A stretch of DNA of 32,000 nt from Trichodesmium erythraeum IMS101. Its GTDB lineage: Bacteria; Cyanobacteriota; Cyanobacteriia; Cyanobacteriales; Microcoleaceae. Position numbers and translations under genes: made by a program. The notes under the pieces were generated by a model. The model was not told the DNA's origin. It was given only the letters and a program-made list of their open reading frames with translations, and did not search any database. Below are positions 1,588-28,500 of the stretch, one piece after another. Location of the stretch: assembly GCF_000014265.1 (NCBI RefSeq), contig NC_008312.1:2820001-2852000 (forward strand). The letters are read 5' to 3'. Within the stretch, counting starts at the first letter, position 1. Each line of letters begins with the position of its first letter.

Positions 1588-4500
1588 CTAACTAAAGGTT
1601 ATTCCTCCTCCTCCTTCTATCTTGTCAATAAAGACTTGATTTTTAACGTCTCCACCAGCGGCATTACCTTGTTGTACTGTTATTGCGTTGCGAATATTCT
1701 CTTGTGCTTCTAGTTGTATTTTTTCCTTTCCCTCTGCGGGTAAACCTTTGCCTCCACGCAATAATGCTACGGGAAAATCTTCTGTTTGGGAAAAGTCGAA
1801 TATGGGGGTTTGTTCTCCCCCTTGTTGTTGAGCGCTTTGGGGAACGGTTTTTCCTACATGGTGCATTAGGTTGGAAAGGGTGACATATTTGTCTCCTGGT
1901 TTGTTGTCTCCACCTTGTAATGCTTCGAGAAGGTGGTATGTGTAGATGCTCATTGTTTGATCTGAGCGGATCCATGATAACTGGTATCCTGTGGATGAGG
2001 TGAATACTGCCCGTCCTGTTCCTTTTTTTAGGTCTTCTATTAGGTTTTTGGGGAGGGCGGTTTGACTGAAGTTTTCGGGTAAGTCTAGTTGGTCTGTTTC
2101 TTTGGCGGTTGCCATTCCTTGGGCGTGACAACTATCTATAATTACTAATAGTTTTTGGGCGGATATTTCCTGGAGGGCGTTGTTAAAGTCTGTTGCTGGT
2201 AATGCTGTTTTTTGTGTTTTTTGTAGTTTTATGGGGCTGGTGTCGTGGGGGATTAAATAATATTTTTCGGTTGATTTATCTAGCCAACCATGACCGGAAT
2301 AATAGACTAATATTGTTGCTTCTGGGTCGTTTTTTGCTTGTTCTTGGAGCCAGTTTATGTTGTTTAAAATGTTTTGTTTTGTTGCTTGTTCGTTGCATAG
2401 TAGGCGGAGATGATTTTCGTCGTCTATGTAACTGCAGAGGTCGGGGTTTGTGAGGAATGATTTGATTGCTTGAACGTCTTTGACTGTGACGGGGAGTGAC
2501 CAGTCGGGGTATTTGTAGTCGCCGACTCCTATTAGTAGGGCGTAGTTGTGAGAAAGTGATTTAGACATGGGTATTTTGGGGGTTGGTTTGTAGTATTGGA
2601 GCCGTTGTTGGATGGTTTGAATAATTTTGATAATTTTATATAAATCTTGTTTTACAAAACTATCATTTTGTAGTTTTTTTGTCAACTTAATAATTGTGTT
2701 TTCTGAACCTATTTTACCCAGAGCTTCTGCTACATGGTCGCGCACCCAATAGTCTGAGTCTTTTAGGAGTGGAATTAATTGTTCAATTGCTTTTTCCGAA
2801 CCTATTTCACCCAGAACATATGCTGCTCTCGAACGCACAAAAGAGTCTGAGTCTTTGAGGAGTGGAATTAATCCCTCAATTGCTTTTTCCGAACCTATTT
2901 CACCCAGAGCATATGCTGCATTGCGACGCACATTAGGGTCTGAGTCTTTGAGGAGTGGAATTAATTGCTCAATTGCTTTTTCCGAACCTATTTTACCCAG
3001 AGCTTCTGCTGCAGTATAACGCACATTAGGGTCTGAGTCTTTGAGGAGTGGAATTAATTGCTCAATTGCTTTTTCCGAACCTATTTTACCCAGAGCTTCT
3101 GCTGCAGTATAACGCACATTAGGGTCTGAGTATTTTAGGAGTGGAATTAATTGCTCAATTACTGTTTCCGAACCTATTTCACCCAGAGCTTCTGCTGCAT
3201 TGCGACGCACATTAGGGTCTGAGTCTTTGAGGAGTGGAATTAATTGCTCAATTGCTTTTTCCGAACCTATTTTACCCAGAGCTTCTGCTGCAGTATAACG
3301 CACAAATTCGTCTGAGTCTTTTAGGAGTGGAATTAATCCCTCAATTGCTTTTTCCGAACCTATTTTACCCAGAGCTTCTGCTGCAGAAAAATTCACAGAA
3401 GAGTTTGAGTCTTTTAGGAGTGGAATTAATTGCTCAATTGCTTTTTCCGAACCTATTTCACCCAGAACATATACTGCACTATAACGCACAAATTCGTCTG
3501 AGTCTTTTAGGAGTGGAATTAATCCCTCAATTGCTTTTTCCGAACCTATTTTACCCAGAACATATACTGCTCTCGAACGCACAGAAGAGTCTGAGTCTTT
3601 GAGGAGTGGAATTAATTGCTCAATTGCTTTTTCCGAACCTATTTTACCCAGAGCCTCTGCTGCAGCATAACGCACATATTCATCTGAGTCTTTTAGGAGT
3701 GGAATTAATTGCTCAATTGCTTTTTCCGAACCTATTTGACTCAGAGCAGATCGTGCAGAAAAATTCACATTAGGGTCTGAGTCTTTTAGGAGTGGAATTA
3801 ATCCCTCAATTGCTTTTTCCGAATCTATTTTACCCAGAGCCTCTGCTGCAGCATAACGCACAAAAGAGTCTGAGTCTTTGAGGAGTGGAATTAATCCCTC
3901 AATTGCTTTTTGCGAACCTATTTTACCCATGGCATTTGCTGCACTCCAACACACAAAAGAGTCTGAGTCTTTGAGGAGTGGAATTAATCCCTCAATTGCA
4001 GTTTCCGAACCTATTTCACCCAGAGCATATGCTGCACTCCAACGCACATATTCATCTGAGTCTTTTAGGAGCGGAATTAATTCCTCAATTGCTTTTTCCG
4101 AAGCTATTTTACCCAGAGCATGTGCTGCACTCCCACGCATATACTTGTCTGAGTGTTCTAGAAATTGAACCAACCTCGGAACAGTAACCTCCGACATCGT
4201 TAACCCAGCCAACACAACCTTCGCCAACCCAGGCAACTCCAACCCATCAACCTCAGCAAACGCCGCTTCCTGAAACTTCTCTTTTACCTCACCCACCAAC
4301 CTCGCCCCCAAAAACCAATCTACCTCCAACGCCAGCCTTACCACCCGCACCGCTAACACCTCATCCTCAACCAACCCCAACATCAACGCCACCACTTCCG
4401 TCCACTTCAAATAATTCAAATAATCCCACTGCAACTCATAGTCACTCAAACCAGACAACTGCGACGACAACCTTTCCGCCGCATAATACTCCTGCAACAA

Positions 4501-5619
4501 CTGATGGCGAAACGAAATCTGACCATCATCTCCCACCTGGATCAAATGATACTCCAACAGATCCTCCAACCAACCCATGGCACAGTCAGTCGGAGCCACC
4601 ACCTGCCCTCGCAAAAAGTCCGCCAATACATCTTCAGCCTTTTTCCGAGGAATAGCAACCATCATCTCAGTTTTCGACCCCCCAGTTGTCATCACCCACG
4701 CCAACTCCTGCAATAACCGATCCCACCAACGCCGAGAACTTTCATCAACCAGAACATCCTGCTTAATACGACCACTATAAGTCTGAGTAAAACCACGAAA
4801 TACCAACCCCAGATGAGCAGGTATGACCTTGTTATAGTCAAACACCGAACACAACATCAACAAAAACATCGGAGTTTCCCCCAACTCCCGCAACCTCCCC
4901 TGTAACTGTCCCCACAAATTTTCACCCTGTTCCGGCAAATAAGCACAGACAAAATCCTGCATTTGAGATTCTGTCAGGGGCTGCATTTCCAGCTTTTTCT
5001 CAATCCGCAAGTCTCCCCCCAGACTCAAATCTCGGGTCGAAAACACCATAGCAGTTTCTGGGTAGTCTTGCCGGAACATTCTCACCTGTTGTCGCGCCTC
5101 CTCCGACGCCATCTCATTAAACCCATCAAATAGCAGCAAAAATTTACCTTGAAGCAGCAAACTTTTCAGAGTCTCTTCATCTATATATGTATTGTGGTTG
5201 TGCTTATCAATAAAAGCTTGAATTCTCGAAAGTACAGAAGATTTACTGTAGCGCAATTCTATGAGAATAGGAATTTGGCCATTTTCCCCAGACCAGACCT
5301 TATGTGCCTCCTCCAACAACAACCTGGCCAAAGCAGTAGATTTTCCCGACCCCGGTCTTCCCACCAATAAAACATGATTAGCCGCATATTTCCGTAAACC
5401 CTCCAAAACCGTCAACCGTTCAATTTTCTCTTGTGGGTCTTTCCCCTGCTTTTCCTCCGACTTAACCCTTTGTACCATCAAACCCAAATCGAAAGAAGGA
5501 AAAATATTTTGCCCTTGCTCATGGGGCTTTTTTCCCGCCACATCCGTCAGAGTATAAACCTCCCACCAACGGTCATACTCTCGGCAAACTGATTCTAGAT
5601 AGGGCCCCCAATTGATCAT
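1588..5619 (-). CDS. Multidomain STAND protein: NACHT NTPase + 16 HEAT repeats + caspase-fold peptidase C14 (orthocaspase) + G/N/Q-rich tail (1343 aa)
   Basis: Uninterrupted 4 kb ORF. NACHT motifs: Walker A GRPGSGKST (aa 87-95), Walker B LLLFDGFNE (D165), STR sensor, ETPMFLLMLC, winged-helix FRHQLLQEYYAA. The 31-aa unit AIExLIPLLKDSDxxVRxxAAxALGxIGSEK occurs 16 times. Caspase dyad: YYSGHG (H1110) and DSCHAQG (C1164). Confidence 0.9.
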   Translation of the reverse strand: MINWGPYLESVCREYDRWWEVYTLTDVAGKKPHEQGQNIFPSFDLGLMVQRVKSEEKQGKDPQEKIERLTVLEGLRKYAANHVLLVGRPGSGKSTALARLLLEEAHKVWSGENGQIPILIELRYSKSSVLSRIQAFIDKHNHNTYIDEETLKSLLLQGKFLLLFDGFNEMASEEARQQVRMFRQDYPETAMVFSTRDLSLGGDLRIEKKLEMQPLTESQMQDFVCAYLPEQGENLWGQLQGRLRELGETPMFLLMLCSVFDYNKVIPAHLGLVFRGFTQTYSGRIKQDVLVDESSRRWWDRLLQELAWVMTTGGSKTEMMVAIPRKKAEDVLADFLRGQVVAPTDCAMGWLEDLLEYHLIQVGDDGQISFRHQLLQEYYAAERLSSQLSGLSDYELQWDYLNYLKWTEVVALMLGLVEDEVLAVRVVRLALEVDWFLGARLVGEVKEKFQEAAFAEVDGLELPGLAKVVLAGLTMSEVTVPRLVQFLEHSDKYMRGSAAHALGKIASEKAIEELIPLLKDSDEYVRWSAAYALGEIGSETAIEGLIPLLKDSDSFVCWSAANAMGKIGSQKAIEGLIPLLKDSDSFVRYAAAEALGKIDSEKAIEGLIPLLKDSDPNVNFSARSALSQIGSEKAIEQLIPLLKDSDEYVRYAAAEALGKIGSEKAIEQLIPLLKDSDSSVRSRAVYVLGKIGSEKAIEGLIPLLKDSDEFVRYSAVYVLGEIGSEKAIEQLIPLLKDSNSSVNFSAAEALGKIGSEKAIEGLIPLLKDSDEFVRYTAAEALGKIGSEKAIEQLIPLLKDSDPNVRRNAAEALGEIGSETVIEQLIPLLKYSDPNVRYTAAEALGKIGSEKAIEQLIPLLKDSDPNVRYTAAEALGKIGSEKAIEQLIPLLKDSDPNVRRNAAYALGEIGSEKAIEGLIPLLKDSDSFVRSRAAYVLGEIGSEKAIEQLIPLLKDSDYWVRDHVAEALGKIGSENTIIKLTKKLQNDSFVKQDLYKIIKIIQTIQQRLQYYKPTPKIPMSKSLSHNYALLIGVGDYKYPDWSLPVTVKDVQAIKSFLTNPDLCSYIDDENHLRLLCNEQATKQNILNNINWLQEQAKNDPEATILVYYSGHGWLDKSTEKYYLIPHDTSPIKLQKTQKTALPATDFNNALQEISAQKLLVIIDSCHAQGMATAKETDQLDLPENFSQTALPKNLIEDLKKGTGRAVFTSSTGYQLSWIRSDQTMSIYTYHLLEALQGGDNKPGDKYVTLSNLMHHVGKTVPQSAQQQGGEQTPIFDFSQTEDFPVALLRGGKGLPAEGKEKIQLEAQENIRNAITVQQGNAAGGDVKNQVFIDKIEGGGGITFS
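1750..2568 (-). other. Caspase-fold peptidase C14 domain (about aa 1018-1290)
   Basis: Begins HNYALLIGVGDYKY. The catalytic His codon is at nt 2290-2292 (YYSGHG) and the catalytic Cys codon at nt 2128-2130 (DSCHAQG). A p10-like segment FTSSTGYQLSW..YTYHLLEALQGG follows. Confidence 0.85.
2698..4182 (-). repeat. In-frame tandem array of 16 x 93 bp encoding PBS-lyase/HEAT-like repeats (aa 480-974)
   Basis: Strict 93-nt periodicity. Nt 2941-3033 and 3034-3126 are identical base for base. The array creates spurious repeat-derived ORFs on the opposite strand (3234-3602, 3878-4168, 3978-4187). Confidence 0.9.
4465..5382 (-). other. NACHT/STAND NTPase module (about aa 80-385) of the 1343-aa protein
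   Basis: Walker A lies at nt 5335-5361. The Walker B Asp codon (D165) is at nt 5125-5127. The winged-helix-like FRHQLLQEYYAA follows. Domain boundaries are approximate. Confidence 0.8.
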
Positions 5620-5712: not shown

Positions 5713-6447
5713 TTGAATAATTATCAATCAAATCTTCCGATAAACACCTTGAAAGAACTTTTAATTACTGGAACTGATACTGACGCAGGCAAAACAATAT
5801 TGACCATCGCTCTTGCTGCTTACTGGCAAACTTACTACAAAAACCAGAAGTTAGCCCTGTTTAAACCTATTCAAACTGGTATTGGCGATCGCGAACTCTA
5901 CACCCAACTATTTTCCCTCGAACAATCTCTTGACGAAATCAACCCTTTATGGTATAAGACACCAGTTGCACCACCCGTAGCATCAGAAAAAGAAGGTCGT
6001 CTAATACAATTAGACAAAATATGGTCAACTTTTACAACCTTGCGAGAGCAAAAAGATTTTGTATTAGTTGAAGGTTTAGGAGGGCTGGGTTCCCCTGTAA
6101 CTAAGGAACTCACCGTAGCAGATATAGCTAGAGATTGGGATTTACCCACTATTTTAGTAGTACCAATTAAGTTAGGAGCGATCGCTCAAACTGTAGCAAA
6201 CGTTGCCCTAGCCCGTCAGATGAAAGTTAACCTCCGAGGCATTATCCTCAACTGTATCAAACCCTGCTCAGAACAAGAAATAGCTGACTGGACTCCAGTT
6301 GACTTAATTGAATCCTTAACTCAAATGCAAGTTTGCGGTATTATACCACACTTAAAAGACATTACCGACTTAGATAAATTAGCAAAAGCAGCTTCTAACC
6401 TAGACTTAGAGAAATTTCTGCCAGTAGTGTCAAAAGTTAAAAGTTAA
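5713..6447 (+). CDS. bioD: Dethiobiotin synthetase
   Basis: P-loop ITGTDTDAGKT is typical of BioD, followed by VEGLGGLGSP. The 5713 start is a TTG from the longest ORF. An in-frame TTG at 5749 (giving MKELLITGTDT) would give a more typical N-terminus. Confidence 0.8.
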   Translation: MNNYQSNLPINTLKELLITGTDTDAGKTILTIALAAYWQTYYKNQKLALFKPIQTGIGDRELYTQLFSLEQSLDEINPLWYKTPVAPPVASEKEGRLIQLDKIWSTFTTLREQKDFVLVEGLGGLGSPVTKELTVADIARDWDLPTILVVPIKLGAIAQTVANVALARQMKVNLRGIILNCIKPCSEQEIADWTPVDLIESLTQMQVCGIIPHLKDITDLDKLAKAASNLDLEKFLPVVSKVKS

Positions 6448-6493
6448 AAGTCAAAAGCCAGAAACTAAAAGTTAAAAGTTAAAAGTTAAATTT
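6431..6493. repeat. Heptameric STRR-like tract, 9 units of (T/C)AAAAGT type
   Basis: CAAAAGT TAAAAGT TAAAAGT CAAAAGC CAGAAAC TAAAAGT TAAAAGT TAAAAGT TAAATTT. It overlaps the last codons and the stop of bioD. Confidence 0.8.
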
Positions 6494-10240: not shown

Positions 10241-10828
10241 ATGGTAAATAAAATTTCTGCTGAAGAATTTTTTGATAGTTGGTCTGTCAAGTATGATGAT
10301 CTGTTCAAAGATCCTAAGTATTATGTGCGTTACCTCAATGAAGCAGCTAAAATATTCCATCAATATAATTACTATCAAGGTAGTATTTTGGATATTGGTT
10401 GTGGTACAGGTTTTCTGAGTGAATTATTACAGGGAAATTTTGAATATACAGGAATTGATATTTCTAGTAAAATCCTAGATTATGCAGCTAAAAGAGGATA
10501 CAAAACTATCCACAAATCCATTGAAACAGCTTTGTCTGAAATTGATACTCAATCCTACGATTTTGTTTTTTGTCTGGGAGCATTATTATTTGTTGAAGAT
10601 GCTCAAAAAGCTATAGAGCATATTTATCGAATTGCTCGTAAAGCTATTTTAATAAGTCTTGATGAGACAACCGAGGAATATATCAAAAATTTGGCTGTGC
10701 CAGTTTATGACCATTCAAAAATTACAATTAAAAATGCCATTGAAGATTATTTGATTATAGGTTGGACTTCTCCAACTACGGGAATTCCTATCCGAACTCG
10801 CATGATTTATATTCAGCAAAAAAACTAA
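10241..10828 (+). CDS. Class I SAM-dependent methyltransferase, tandem copy 1
   Basis: Motif I ILDIGCGTGFLS. 195 aa. Paralog of the next gene, offset by 679 nt. Confidence 0.75.
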   Translation: MVNKISAEEFFDSWSVKYDDLFKDPKYYVRYLNEAAKIFHQYNYYQGSILDIGCGTGFLSELLQGNFEYTGIDISSKILDYAAKRGYKTIHKSIETALSEIDTQSYDFVFCLGALLFVEDAQKAIEHIYRIARKAILISLDETTEEYIKNLAVPVYDHSKITIKNAIEDYLIIGWTSPTTGIPIRTRMIYIQQKN

Positions 10829-10919: not shown

Positions 10920-11507
10920 ATGGTAAATAAAATTTCTGCTGAAGAATTTTATGATGATTTTGCTCCTAACTATGATGATGTATTAAAAGACCCCAAGTGT
11001 AATGCACAGCACGTCTATGAGGCAGCTAAAATATTTCATCAATATAATTACCATCAAGGTAGTATTTTAGATATAGGTTGTGGAACAGGCTTTCTAAGTG
11101 AATTATTAGAGGGAAATTTTGAATATACAGGTATTGATGTTTCGGCTAATATGCTGGAATATTCAGCTAAAAGAGGTTATCAAACTATCCATAAACCAAT
11201 AGAAACGGCTTTACCTAAAATTGATACTCAATCCTACGATTTTGTTTTTTGTCTGGGAGCATTATTATTTGTTGAAGATGCTCAAAAAGCTATAGAGCAT
11301 ATTTATCGAATTGCTCGTAAAGCTATTTTAATAAGTCTTGATGAGACAACCGAGGAATATATCAAAAATTTTGCTGTGCTAGTTTATGACCATTCAAAAA
11401 TTACAATTAAAAATGCCATTGAAGATTATTTGATTATAGGTTGGACTTCTACAACTACAGGTATTTCTATCCGAACTCGTATGATTTATATTGAACAAAA
11501 AAATTAA
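10920..11507 (+). CDS. Class I SAM-dependent methyltransferase, tandem copy 2
   Basis: Same length and motifs as copy 1. The 3' half is nearly identical at nucleotide level. Confidence 0.75.
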   Translation: MVNKISAEEFYDDFAPNYDDVLKDPKCNAQHVYEAAKIFHQYNYHQGSILDIGCGTGFLSELLEGNFEYTGIDVSANMLEYSAKRGYQTIHKPIETALPKIDTQSYDFVFCLGALLFVEDAQKAIEHIYRIARKAILISLDETTEEYIKNFAVLVYDHSKITIKNAIEDYLIIGWTSTTTGISIRTRMIYIEQKN

Positions 11508-15147: not shown

Positions 15148-16260
15148 TAGCAATCCTAAGTAGGTTGCGGCAAAATTTCATACTGAAAAAGTTTTGGGAA
15201 ATTGAATATTTGACCATCCGCAAAAAACTTAAATAGCCACTTAACTACTTTAAAAGAACTGCAAAGATGATAAAAAGTAATACTGAAATTTTTGGTTTGT
15301 AACCAAATATCTTCAACAGGATTTTGCTCCGGAGCATTGGGAGCAAATCTTGTACAATTTATCAACAATTCTTCTTCTGATAAGTATTGATTAATTGTCA
15401 TTAAATATTCTCGAAATTCTTGAGAGTTATGGTAAGTTGCCCCATCCCAAAATATTGCCAATTTGTTGCCCGGTCTTTGCTTCTGCAAATATTTAATAAA
15501 TTCAATAGTATTTTTAGTATTTCCACTCTCATATTCTTGCACAAGAAATTCCTTGGTTTTATAGTCTAAAGCTCCATAATAAGTCTGTCTTTCTTTTTCA
15601 TTTTTAATTGCAATTTCTATTCTTTCATCTGTTTTTCCCCAAGCATAACCTAATATGTCTCCCCATAGAAGATGACATTCATCAATCATAAACACTGTAA
15701 GCTTTCCAGTTTCTATTTCTGGTTGCCATTTAGCTAAAAATTCCTGTATTTCTTTTCTTTTAACTTCTACTAATTAATCATTTTTAGCAGGATTCTTTTT
15801 TTGAGTTTTTTTCCAACTTATGCCCGCTTCTTTAAACAAGTTATAGTAACTTTGATTAGACTCAAAAACCACATCATATTGCTCCTGTAAGTAGTTTTTT
15901 AAATCTGATAACCTAAGATAATCTTGTGCTCTCAACCACTCAATTGTTTTCTCTTTTTCGACCGTTTTTAAGTAACCTTGTCTCCCTTGATACTGAAGCC
16001 TTAAACTTTCTACACCATGAAATAATGCTTGGTTTTTCCATTCACTAATAAAACTGTGAGAAACATTTAATAATTCTTTGACTTCATGGTAGGATTTTCC
16101 TGACAAGGTCATTTTTACGGCCAAGGCCCTTTTAATTTCTTTAGACTCTTTTGTTTGATTAATAAAATCATTTAGTTTATCTATAATATTCATTTTTTGT
16201 CTTTTTCTTAGATCTGTTATTCTTACTATTATATCTGTTGCGACCAATATGGGATTGCTA
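15148..16260 (-). mobile_element. IS630-family insertion sequence (1113 bp) with terminal inverted repeats and flanking TA
   Basis: Left end is TAGCAATCCTAAGTAGGTTGCGGCA. The reverse complement of the right end is TAGCAATCCCATATTGGTCGCAACA. The outer 9 bp are identical and the repeat is imperfect further in. TA dinucleotides sit at 15146-15147 and 16261-16262. Confidence 0.8.
15156..16247 (-). pseudogene. IS630-family DDE transposase interrupted by a single in-frame TAA (15774-15776)
   Basis: The HTH part (15774-16247) and the DDE part (IDECH .. FWDGATYHNS .. NPVEDIW) are in the same frame, since 15774-15156 = 618 = 3 x 206. The junction reads NPAKND*LVEVKRKEIQEFLAKWQPEIETGKLTVFMIDECH. Confidence 0.8.
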
Positions 16261-27591: not shown

Positions 27592-28500
27592 CTAGGAAAC
27601 TGTGATAGAACCCAGTAACCTTTCCACAACTGTTTTCGTCTGTCTTCCTCCTACGGTTATTAAACGATGGGAAAGTACATAAGGAACAAGAAACTTGACA
27701 TCATCAGGAATAGCATAATTTCTTCCGGATAGAAAACCTAAAGCTTGAGTTGCTTGATGTAAAGTAACTGTTCCACGAGGACTAACACCTAGTGTAATTT
27801 CTTCATCTTCCCTTGTTGCTCTAACCAGTTTGAGAATATACTTTTTCAAAGACTCATCTACTTTGACTAAGCTGCATAAACGACGTAACTCCTGTACTTC
27901 CTCCAAAGTAATGCAAGCTTTTAGTGTCTTAACTCCTGAACCTTCAGAAATTCTTTGTAGCATCTGAAGCTCTTCCGACTCTGTAGGATAGCCTAATGTT
28001 AGAGATAAAGTAAAACGATCCATTTGTGCTTCTGGCAATGGAAATGTTCCCTGATACTCAATTGGGTTCTGAGTTGCAATTACAAAAAATGGGTTAGGAA
28101 CAGAACGCGACACCCCATCTATGGTAACCTGTTTTTCCTCCATTACTTCCAAAAGAGCAGACTGAGTACGAGGTGTTGCACGATTAATTTCATCCGTCAA
28201 TAGGACGTTTGCAAAGACCGGGCCGGGTAGAAATTCAAATTCTCCACTGCGAGGATTCCAAATATTAGTACCAGTAATATCAGTGGGTAGTAAGTCAGGA
28301 GTACATTGAATTCGCTGAAACTTTCCAGCGATCGAATAAGCTAAAGATTTTGCTAGTAAGGTTTTACCTACACCGGGAACATCTTCTAGAAGAACATGAC
28401 CCCCTGAAAGTAGAGCTACTAATACTAACTTGATGCCATCTTCTTTGCCCACAATAGCTTGACTCAGATTTTCTTTTAGCTTTTCAATACTTTCTATCAT
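27592..28500 (-). CDS. MoxR-family AAA+ ATPase (AAA_3)
   Basis: Walker A EDVPGVGKT, TPDLLPTDITG, Walker B LLTDEINRATPRTQSALLEVMEE, and VIATQNP. 302 aa. Confidence 0.85.
   Translation of the reverse strand: MIESIEKLKENLSQAIVGKEDGIKLVLVALLSGGHVLLEDVPGVGKTLLAKSLAYSIAGKFQRIQCTPDLLPTDITGTNIWNPRSGEFEFLPGPVFANVLLTDEINRATPRTQSALLEVMEEKQVTIDGVSRSVPNPFFVIATQNPIEYQGTFPLPEAQMDRFTLSLTLGYPTESEELQMLQRISEGSGVKTLKACITLEEVQELRRLCSLVKVDESLKKYILKLVRATREDEEITLGVSPRGTVTLHQATQALGFLSGRNYAIPDDVKFLVPYVLSHRLITVGGRQTKTVVERLLGSITVS

Follow-up and report, generated by a model that had tools for sequence, protein, structure and literature searches.

Background

In fungi, a group of NOD-like receptors (NLRs; NOD, nucleotide-binding oligomerization domain) combines a NACHT domain with superstructure-forming repeats of high internal conservation (HiC), namely the WD40 repeats of HET-E, HET-D and HNWD and repeats of the ANK, TPR and HEAT types, e.g. 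Pa_6_7270 (Paoletti 2007; Dyrka 2014, PMC4986451). The repeats within one such protein are highly conserved, a few surface positions are under positive selection and the number of repeats is polymorphic; one example is of the HEAT type (PMC4986451). The same regime has been suggested for the WD and TPR repeats of bacterial NLR-like proteins, whose internal identity is 80-90% (Dyrka et al. 2020, bioRxiv 10.1101/2020.01.06.895854), and Kibby et al. classed the HEAT, TPR and LRR tails of bacterial NACHT proteins as 'antigen-receptor type' sensors, noting C-terminal effectors and permuted domain orders (bioRxiv 10.1101/2022.07.19.500537). Here we analyze a repeat array with this signature in Tery_1841, a gene of the filamentous cyanobacterium Trichodesmium erythraeum IMS101 that encodes a 1343-residue protein with NACHT, HEAT and orthocaspase parts. 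The gene lies at 1588-5619, on the minus strand, of a 32,000-nucleotide stretch of the genome (NC_008312.1, positions 2,820,001 to 2,852,000), which we call the window and to which all coordinates below refer; its features are all on the minus strand.

Two further lines of work bear on this gene. The alphaRep binders (Urvoas 2010; Guellouz 2013, PMC3754942; PDB 3LTJ, 4XL5, 4ZV6, 6FSQ and further entries) are artificial proteins designed from a consensus and picked out by phage display. They are devoid of NACHT or caspase parts and are built from a variable number of modules on one scaffold. Their libraries are randomised at positions 18, 19, 22, 23, 26 and 30 (alphaRep numbering), chosen as the variable positions of the natural family, and in a crystal complex binder and target meet via the concave faces that bear these positions (PMC3754942). 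Tery_1841 is also one of the 12 annotated orthocaspases of IMS101 (TeMC family; PMC7475262, PMC5756287). A review of cyanobacterial orthocaspases lists it as having a NACHT domain and a p20 domain placed, unusually, C-terminal to the accessory domains (PMC7475262). In this literature the HEAT region appears only as an accessory 'scaffold' domain, and the homogeneity of its repeats and its hypervariable face are not described (PMC7475262, PMC5756287).

Like the fungal HiC-repeat NLRs, Tery_1841 joins NACHT to superstructure-forming repeats, its DNA units are near-identical with a few hypervariable binding-face positions at which the ratio of nonsynonymous to synonymous substitution (dN/dS) exceeds 1, and the units are shuffled in an array that evolves faster than its flanks. 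Unlike them, it is bacterial, and its caspase effector follows the repeats, whereas the fungal effector is N-terminal. Repeat-number polymorphism among strains was demonstrated in Podospora by polymerase chain reaction, whereas Tery_1841 was compared with one conspecific assembly, which has an equal number of units. With the bacterial NLR-like and NACHT sensors it shares a filamentous cyanobacterial host, a NACHT NTPase, a repeat sensor of high identity and a predicted role in death or defence; those reports name WD and TPR repeats for internal conservation, whereas the array of Tery_1841 is of the 31-residue HEAT_PBS type. With alphaRep it shares the HEAT-like motif of 31 residues (52-54% identity), six variable positions, a variegated concave surface and modules of identical scaffold in variable number; alphaRep diversity comes from synthetic oligonucleotides without recombination, unlike that of Tery_1841. 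The HiC-repeat signature is thus already known from fungal and some bacterial NLR-like receptors, and the six variable positions are known to alphaRep designers. In the papers that we searched, we found no description of this signature in Tery_1841 or in HEAT-type arrays of NACHT proteins from cyanobacteria. What Tery_1841 adds is a cyanobacterial case of the HEAT type, its link to an orthocaspase already studied in Trichodesmium and variable positions that correspond exactly to the alphaRep surface.

Structure of the repeat array

Tandem Repeats Finder reported only one large tandem array in the window (2692-4129, period 93, 15.5 copies, 86% matches, 0 indels, score 1889), and in the reading frame of Tery_1841 the array continues without gaps at 93 bp from 2698 to 4185. 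An earlier note on this DNA, made from the sequence alone, had counted 16 units of exactly 93 bp. The period and the absence of indels hold, and the count resolves into fifteen near-identical 93-bp (31-residue) HEAT units of the PBS/alphaRep type (2698-4092, residues 510-974), delimited by repeat finding, per-codon counts and the structural model described below, and one degenerate leading unit (4093-4185, residues 479-509, TVPRLVQFLEHSDKYMRGSAAHALGKIASEK), which is N-cap-like, differs from the nearest core unit at 25 of 93 nucleotides and is helical in the model. On the other side, the solenoid ends in a divergent pair of C-terminal capping helices (2590-2697, residues 975-1010, TIIKLTKKLQNDSFVKQDLYKIIKIIQTIQQRLQYY; model helices 533-543 and 546-566).

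The segments 2941-3033 and 3034-3126, which are phase-shifted from the protein register, are 100% identical, as had been noticed before. A comparison at lag 93 showed that they belong to a perfect stretch of 206 nucleotides (2926-3131), consisting of the longest exact run (113 nucleotides, 2926-3038) and its copy. Read in the protein register, each unit differs from all the others, and the earlier statement that the other units differ at a handful of bases was an understatement: pairs of core units differ at 3-26 of 93 nucleotides, with a mean of 13.6 (85% nucleotide identity). At the amino acid level, the mean identity among the 15 units is 75.8% (range 61-94%), rising to 89.6% over the 24 scaffold positions. 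Dyrka 2014 defined such repeats by at least 85% identity over at least 100 residues; the array of Tery_1841 fits the spirit of this definition and misses its numerical amino acid threshold over the whole length.

Synonymous variation is nearly absent from the array, and codon choice is fixed by position. Leucine is encoded by TTA at position 5 of the unit, CTC at position 8 and CTG at position 24, serine by TCA at position 12 and TCG at position 29, and isoleucine by ATT at positions 2 and 6 and ATA at position 27. Position-fixed codons of this kind indicate shared descent or homogenisation at the DNA level, and are not explained by codon bias. Note that two plus-strand open reading frames (ORFs) inside the array, 3234-3602 (122 residues) and 3878-4168 (96 residues), were set aside: they read through the repeat without stops, and nothing indicates that they are coding.

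Variable positions and the predicted fold

Per-codon counts confirmed the scaffold AIExLIPLLKDSDxxVRxxAAxALGxIGSEK given in the earlier note and the variability of its positions 14, 15, 18, 19, 22 and 26. The highest entropies were found at positions 19, 18, 15, 14, 22, 4 and 26; position 4 (G/Q/E), which the note did not list among the positions where differences concentrate, is as variable as position 26, and variation is moderate at positions 17, 21, 23 and 31. The six codons 14, 15, 18, 19, 22 and 26 hold 59% of the pairwise nucleotide differences in 19% of the length. By Nei-Gojobori estimation over all unit pairs, the whole unit has a dN/dS of 1.56; the value is 2.1-2.6 at the hypervariable codons and 0.68 at the remaining 24 codons. 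These values are only indicative, because the 15 units are short paralogues that recombine, their pairwise comparisons are not independent and very few synonymous sites are involved. Within this limit, dN/dS above 1 is confined to the hypervariable codons.

An AlphaFold2 model spanning residues 441-1343 was used to place these positions. The predicted local distance difference test (pLDDT) score is about 90-95 in the array, and mostly 40-80 in the caspase part, which is therefore of low confidence. In the model, every 31 residues form a unit with helix A at positions 30-10, a DSD turn at positions 11-13 and helix B at positions 14-27. A phmmer search against PDB sequences placed artificial alphaRep proteins on top (E 1e-114 to 1e-25), and Foldseek aligned the model with alphaRep crystal structures at template modelling (TM) scores of 0.81-0.85 and root-mean-square deviations of 3.3-4.0 A, with the 52-54% identity given above. 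The model thus shows the array as an alphaRep-type alpha-solenoid, a predicted fold.

With an offset of +4, the randomised alphaRep positions 18, 19, 22, 23, 26 and 30 correspond exactly to positions 14, 15, 18, 19, 22 and 26 of the window units. On a helical wheel, these six positions share one face of helix B within an arc of 140 degrees, and only 34 of 3003 possible sets of six positions are as tight; mapped on the predicted solenoid, the variable positions do not scatter and coincide with the target-binding positions of alphaRep. Proline, the commonest residue at alphaRep position 18 (PMC3754942), occupies the corresponding position 14 in 5 of the 15 units. Aromatic residues make up 27% of the six positions, compared with 9% outside the array. 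We infer from this arrangement that the concave face of the array binds a ligand.

One could instead regard the array as a passive scaffold or spacer, for example a solenoid like that of PBS lyases, in which the variable sites are exposed residues under relaxed constraint and recognize nothing. HEAT_PBS repeats are indeed found also in CpcE/F lyases and NblB, the protein has sub-threshold NCBIfam matches to these families (CpcE 271 bits against a cut-off of 330, NblB 241 against 300), and the weakness of the dN/dS statistics would also suit such a view. However, the charged scaffold residues E3, K10, D11, D13, E30 and K31, outside the variable face of helix B, are nearly invariant, even at the nucleotide level; if these residues are solvent-exposed, as we infer, plain relaxed constraint is unlikely. 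Variation is further limited to the one helical face with which alphaRep proteins contact their targets, that face is enriched in aromatic residues, and the same polypeptide also contains a NACHT switch and a protease effector. On this balance we consider a passive scaffold rather improbable and retain a recognition surface as the preferred reading of the variable face.

Shuffling of units within the array

At the variable codons, a limited set of multi-nucleotide cassettes recurs in differing combinations across the units: codons 13-15 read DEY, DSF, DPN, DSS/NSS, DEF or DYW, and codons 18-19 read WS, YA, FS, SR, YS, YT, RN or DH. Units 0, 1, 2 and 4 carry all four combinations of EY or SF with WS or YA, and many further pairs of blocks fail the four-gamete test. 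Moreover, the closest units are often not neighbours, as in the pairs 5/13 (95%), 9/12 (97%) and 10/11 (97%), and units 4 and 6 resemble unit 8. These patterns show that the codons of the concave face of helix B are kept diverse and are re-assorted between units as multi-nucleotide cassettes; the homogeneity of the scaffold is most likely due to exchange among the 93-bp units, either by recombination within the gene or by gene conversion. The reshuffling proposed in the earlier note is therefore seen among the units of this one allele.

Turnover of the array among relatives

The array was also compared with an ortholog from a sister lineage of Trichodesmium (L022, protein P0002), obtained, like the other orthologs used for this contrast, from a short-read metagenome assembly. 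Its unique N-terminal 454 codons are 96.8% identical to the window at the nucleotide level. For the scaffold positions alone, the nucleotide identity between its units and those of the window has a mean of 0.845 (best match 0.906), compared with a mean of 0.938 (best match 0.974) within the window array; the sister array is internally more diverged (0.81 scaffold identity). Low scaffold identity between orthologs with near-identical flanks indicates that the positional orthology of the units has been erased, and these comparisons support an array that has turned over much faster than its flanks. Orthologs with 13-14 units and with 3 units are known from short-read metagenomes of other Trichodesmium lineages; the one with only three units (L023, P0007) is syntenic and comes from an 8x short-read assembly.

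To survey the wider distribution, the NACHT part was used as a query against one genome per species. The scan, which did not return IMS101 itself, gave 20 loci from Okeania, Dapis, Trichodesmium and other Microcoleaceae, 19 of them with a related NACHT part, and in 18 of these 19 a 93-bp array is present (2-22 copies, 70-93% match). The sole Trichodesmium contig among them (L020, from a metagenome-assembled genome (MAG), truncated) stops at NACHT residue 253, upstream of the array. Across the 14 arrays with at least 11 units, the highest within-protein entropies fall at positions 18, 15, 19, 4, 22 and 14, and in all 14 the nucleotide identity of the units exceeds their amino acid identity. The window array is among the most homogeneous surveyed (0.83 nucleotide identity); those of Okeania sp. 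SIO2C9 (L012) and of L004, L010, L015, L016 and L017 have 17-22 HEAT units with mean nucleotide identities of 0.73-0.84. A homolog search also found related NACHT-HEAT proteins in which the caspase is replaced by a TIR domain (Microcystis, Symploca), a metallophosphatase or a trypsin-like domain, a domain pattern that indicates effector swapping on a common sensor chassis. A search with the array alone returned thousands of generic HEAT proteins and no Trichodesmium fragments. A scan of metagenome contigs for further Trichodesmium alleles gave five loci whose identity was 64-94%; two were short fragments, and no clear T. erythraeum allele emerged.

One of the Okeania loci deserves separate mention. 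Some HEAT units of Okeania sp. KiyG1 (L010, NZ_BLZO01000093.1, protein positions 751-1122) are up to 93.5% identical at the nucleotide level to unit 0 of the window, with which they share the hypervariable residues RN and Y22, and are closer to it than any unit of the sister Trichodesmium ortholog; the NACHT part of the same protein is only about 84% identical to that of the window in amino acids. Retained ancestral unit types or exchange between genera could account for this closeness.

Within the species, the comparison is with one assembly, the GBRTRLIN201 MAG (L001), which is syntenic with the window and differs from it by 2 nucleotides in 11.6 kb outside the array. The two arrays were compared ungapped in the unit register, since pairwise alignment with MAFFT slid the repeats and gave meaningless gaps. 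Eleven of the 15 core units are identical, and the sole differing block is units 5-8 (3256-3627; 52 nucleotide differences, at 3305-3588), in place of which the MAG carries exact copies of units 9, 10, 9 and 10, gene length and unit count being unchanged. The MAG was assembled with metaSPAdes from PE150 reads with 300-bp inserts, and up to k=55 its allele has no k-mer that is absent from the IMS101 allele, so that the MAG allele amounts to an alternative walk through the same assembly graph. Conversely, 338 55-mers (gene positions 1977-2314) are specific to IMS101, and at k=77 ten k-mers (gene positions 1955-1964, 0-based) are specific to the MAG, whose reads belong to BioSample SAMN18208363. 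Either a double conversion that really took place or a misassembly may account for the difference of four units, which we did not accept as proof of strain polymorphism.

The warning in the earlier note that short-read assemblies might mishandle the array was well founded: the MAG allele is indistinguishable from a mis-walked de Bruijn path, and metagenome sequences of the ortholog run into adapter on reaching the array or ahead of it. Two such proteins from ENA metagenomes, P0123 (…LSLIHI) and P0124 (…CLLYTSPSPRDPNRSRMPSSA), end in adapter-like residues; the tail of P0124 begins inside the second HEAT unit, and P0123 stops within the linker, about 85 residues short of the array. Untrimmed adapter has in these cases been carried into public assemblies and proteins. 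Unit number and order at the Tery_1841 locus should accordingly not be trusted from short-read assemblies.

If the array were the product of a young tandem amplification only, that is, of recent duplication in the T. erythraeum lineage with no continuing conversion or unequal crossing-over and no polymorphism in populations, several of these observations would be expected: the equal unit number and the 11 identical core units of the conspecific MAG, whose sole difference is possibly an assembly artefact, and the greater internal divergence of the sister array. Simple duplication, however, should leave similar units adjacent or in duplication order, which is not what is seen in the window, and it does not produce the many four-gamete violations between multi-nucleotide cassettes only a few codons apart. 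The presence of high-identity 93-bp arrays in many genera, with very different unit counts, also fits a sustained process better. We regard amplification alone as unlikely, though deserving some weight, and continuing exchange between units as the better account.

Near-identical repeats are error-prone in assembly, and the array might be an assembly artefact; it might also be the product of a diversity-generating retroelement (DGR) or another targeted mutator, and DGRs are reported to diversify STAND-associated sensors in multicellular bacteria (PMC10907252; STAND, signal transduction ATPases with numerous domains). We give hardly any weight to either. The IMS101 array recurs in the independent MAG assembly, in which 11 of its 15 core units are unchanged, and most of the roughly 20 other genomes compared have a homologous array. 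As to a mutator, Pfam found no reverse transcriptase among the 21 window ORFs of at least 120 residues, the rest of the genome not having been searched for one, and no template repeat was found within the 32-kb window; the variable codons differ at all three positions and by all four bases, and the variation is therefore not adenine-specific. The mutator idea was rejected on the absence of reverse transcriptase from the scanned ORFs and on this lack of adenine specificity.

Domain organization and possible function

The product of ORF 1588-5619 is 100% identical to Tery_1841 (ABG51097.1 / WP_011611472.1; P0122), and its domains were delimited by Pfam, with which NCBIfam and PADLOC scans agree. 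The NACHT NTPase domain (4930-5373, residues 83-230; PF05729, E 2.8e-10, 40.7 bits against a cut-off of 26.7) has an intact Walker A motif, GRPGSGKST (residues 87-95, 5335-5361), and a Walker B-like motif, LLLFDGFNE (residues 161-169, 5113-5139). The latter reads D-G-F-N-E, with N in place of D in the signature D[GAS]hDE as quoted by Kibby et al., and DGxNE is nearly invariant in an alignment of 22 proteins. A helical linker (4186-4929, residues 231-478), 93% identical in amino acids to Trichodesmium orthologs and without a Pfam family of its own, leads to the array, which matches PF03130 (3.8e-102) and PF13646 (3.2e-147) as a continuous HEAT_2/HEAT_PBS block. The C-terminal part is a Peptidase C14 domain, an orthocaspase p20 (1774-2547, residues 1025-1282; PF00656, E 2.8e-23, 83.3 bits against 21.4; PADLOC caspase, 5.4e-20), with the catalytic dyad of His1110 (2290-2292, within YYSGHGW) and Cys1164 (2128-2130, within IIDSCHAQG), both invariant in the 22-sequence alignment. 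The subfamily caspase_w_EACC1 was left unassigned because its NCBIfam score (102.8) is below the cut-off of 140. Membership of the CpcE/F or NblB families was rejected by the cut-offs already quoted and, for CpcF, by a score of 133 against 220; the matches are at the level of the generic repeat motif.

The effector, NOD and repeat-sensor modules are thus all present, in the permuted order NACHT, HEAT and caspase with the effector C-terminal. By this combination the scans support Tery_1841 as a probable NLR-like STAND protein, in agreement with the kind of host protein that the earlier note had supposed. The NACHT-encoding part (4186-5619) has a GC content of 47.6%, compared with 35.6% in the window, the highest among the window ORFs, which may hint at a foreign origin.

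We propose that Tery_1841 acts as a sensor of the NLR type: a foreign protein would bind to its variegated concave face, and oligomerisation through NACHT would then activate the C-terminal caspase. We put the probability of this reading at roughly two thirds. Its structural and evolutionary steps follow from the results above, and its signalling steps are modelled on the workings of STAND/NLR proteins and of bacterial NACHT/Avs systems. By this analogy, the concave face would bind a protein ligand, which would most likely belong to a phage or some other invader; binding would lift the autoinhibition of NACHT; NTP-dependent oligomerisation would then gather and activate the orthocaspase domains; and the outcome would be proteolysis and the death of the infected cell within the filament.

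Several points weigh against this proposal. Tery_1841 falls under the cut-off of every curated anti-phage or lyase family in NCBIfam and PADLOC, and its NCBIfam scores for the named NACHT antiphage proteins are far below the cut-offs (HyoA 22 bits against 1200, EruA 17 against 1000). The gene stands among housekeeping genes with no surrounding defence island, the dN/dS values are indicative only, the orthologs behind the contrast between array and flanks come from short-read metagenomes, and strain-level reshuffling is not demonstrated. We know of no ligand, defence phenotype or protease activity of the protein. The interpretation given in the earlier note is accordingly supported in part: it is borne out where it concerns the mapping of the variable positions to a surface, the signal of selection, the shuffled units and the rapid turnover, and it is unproven for strain-level polymorphism and ligand binding.

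The housekeeping context would also suit a sensor that guards or binds an endogenous protein, a candidate being a phycobiliprotein or phycobilisome component, and that ties the caspase to stress-induced programmed cell death. The sub-threshold similarity to CpcE and NblB points in the same direction, and the expression of Trichodesmium metacaspase genes rises when blooms collapse and during Fe starvation (PMC5756287). A conserved self ligand, however, predicts neither hypervariable contact residues nor the fast turnover of the array between sister lineages, and the similarity to CpcE and NblB, which misses the curated cut-offs, is that of the generic motif. We therefore hold an endogenous ligand to be quite improbable and prefer the sensor of foreign proteins.

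On that preferred reading, one of the 12 Trichodesmium orthocaspases is wired to an NLR-type switch, with a sensor that has several hallmarks of arms-race receptors. This points to an infection-triggered role for the Tery_1841 protease and makes one in general stress less likely. Trichodesmium is a major supplier of fixed nitrogen to the ocean, and its blooms collapse by metacaspase-associated cell death, the trigger of which is debated. The six residues in each of the 15 units offer a concrete surface for experiments, and since protein engineers picked the same six positions, crystal structures of alphaRep proteins with their targets can guide work on the natural proteins. More generally, the fungal NLR signature of high internal conservation with a hypervariable face reaches HEAT-type sensors of filamentous cyanobacteria. 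As a long shot, such arrays might be natural 'alphaRep libraries', in which cassette exchange between near-identical units, possibly between the many chromosome copies of a polyploid Trichodesmium filament, would over ecological timescales create receptors of new specificity; different arrays in the cells or filaments of a single strain would then make up a quasi-somatic, population-level immune repertoire coupled to caspase-mediated death and bloom collapse.

Other features of the window

The housekeeping neighbours of Tery_1841 encode a PBP transpeptidase, a BioD-like protein, an M20 peptidase, PRK, methyltransferases and others. The BioD-like gene (5713-6447) is overlapped at its 3' end by a microsatellite of 8.4 copies of AAAAGTT (6432-6490). 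Two class-I methyltransferase paralogues of 195 residues are arranged in tandem on the plus strand (10241-10828 and 10920-11507); they are about 89-90% identical at the nucleotide level, and the pair is kept in the GBRTRLIN201 MAG. On the minus strand, adjoining DDE_3 transposase and HTH ORFs (15156-15695 and 15774-16247) resemble a split or frameshifted insertion sequence (IS) element. MoxR-vWA systems are another class of conflict system of multicellular bacteria, and a MoxR-type AAA_3 ATPase is encoded at 27592-28500 on the minus strand, with a weak bpMoxR match.

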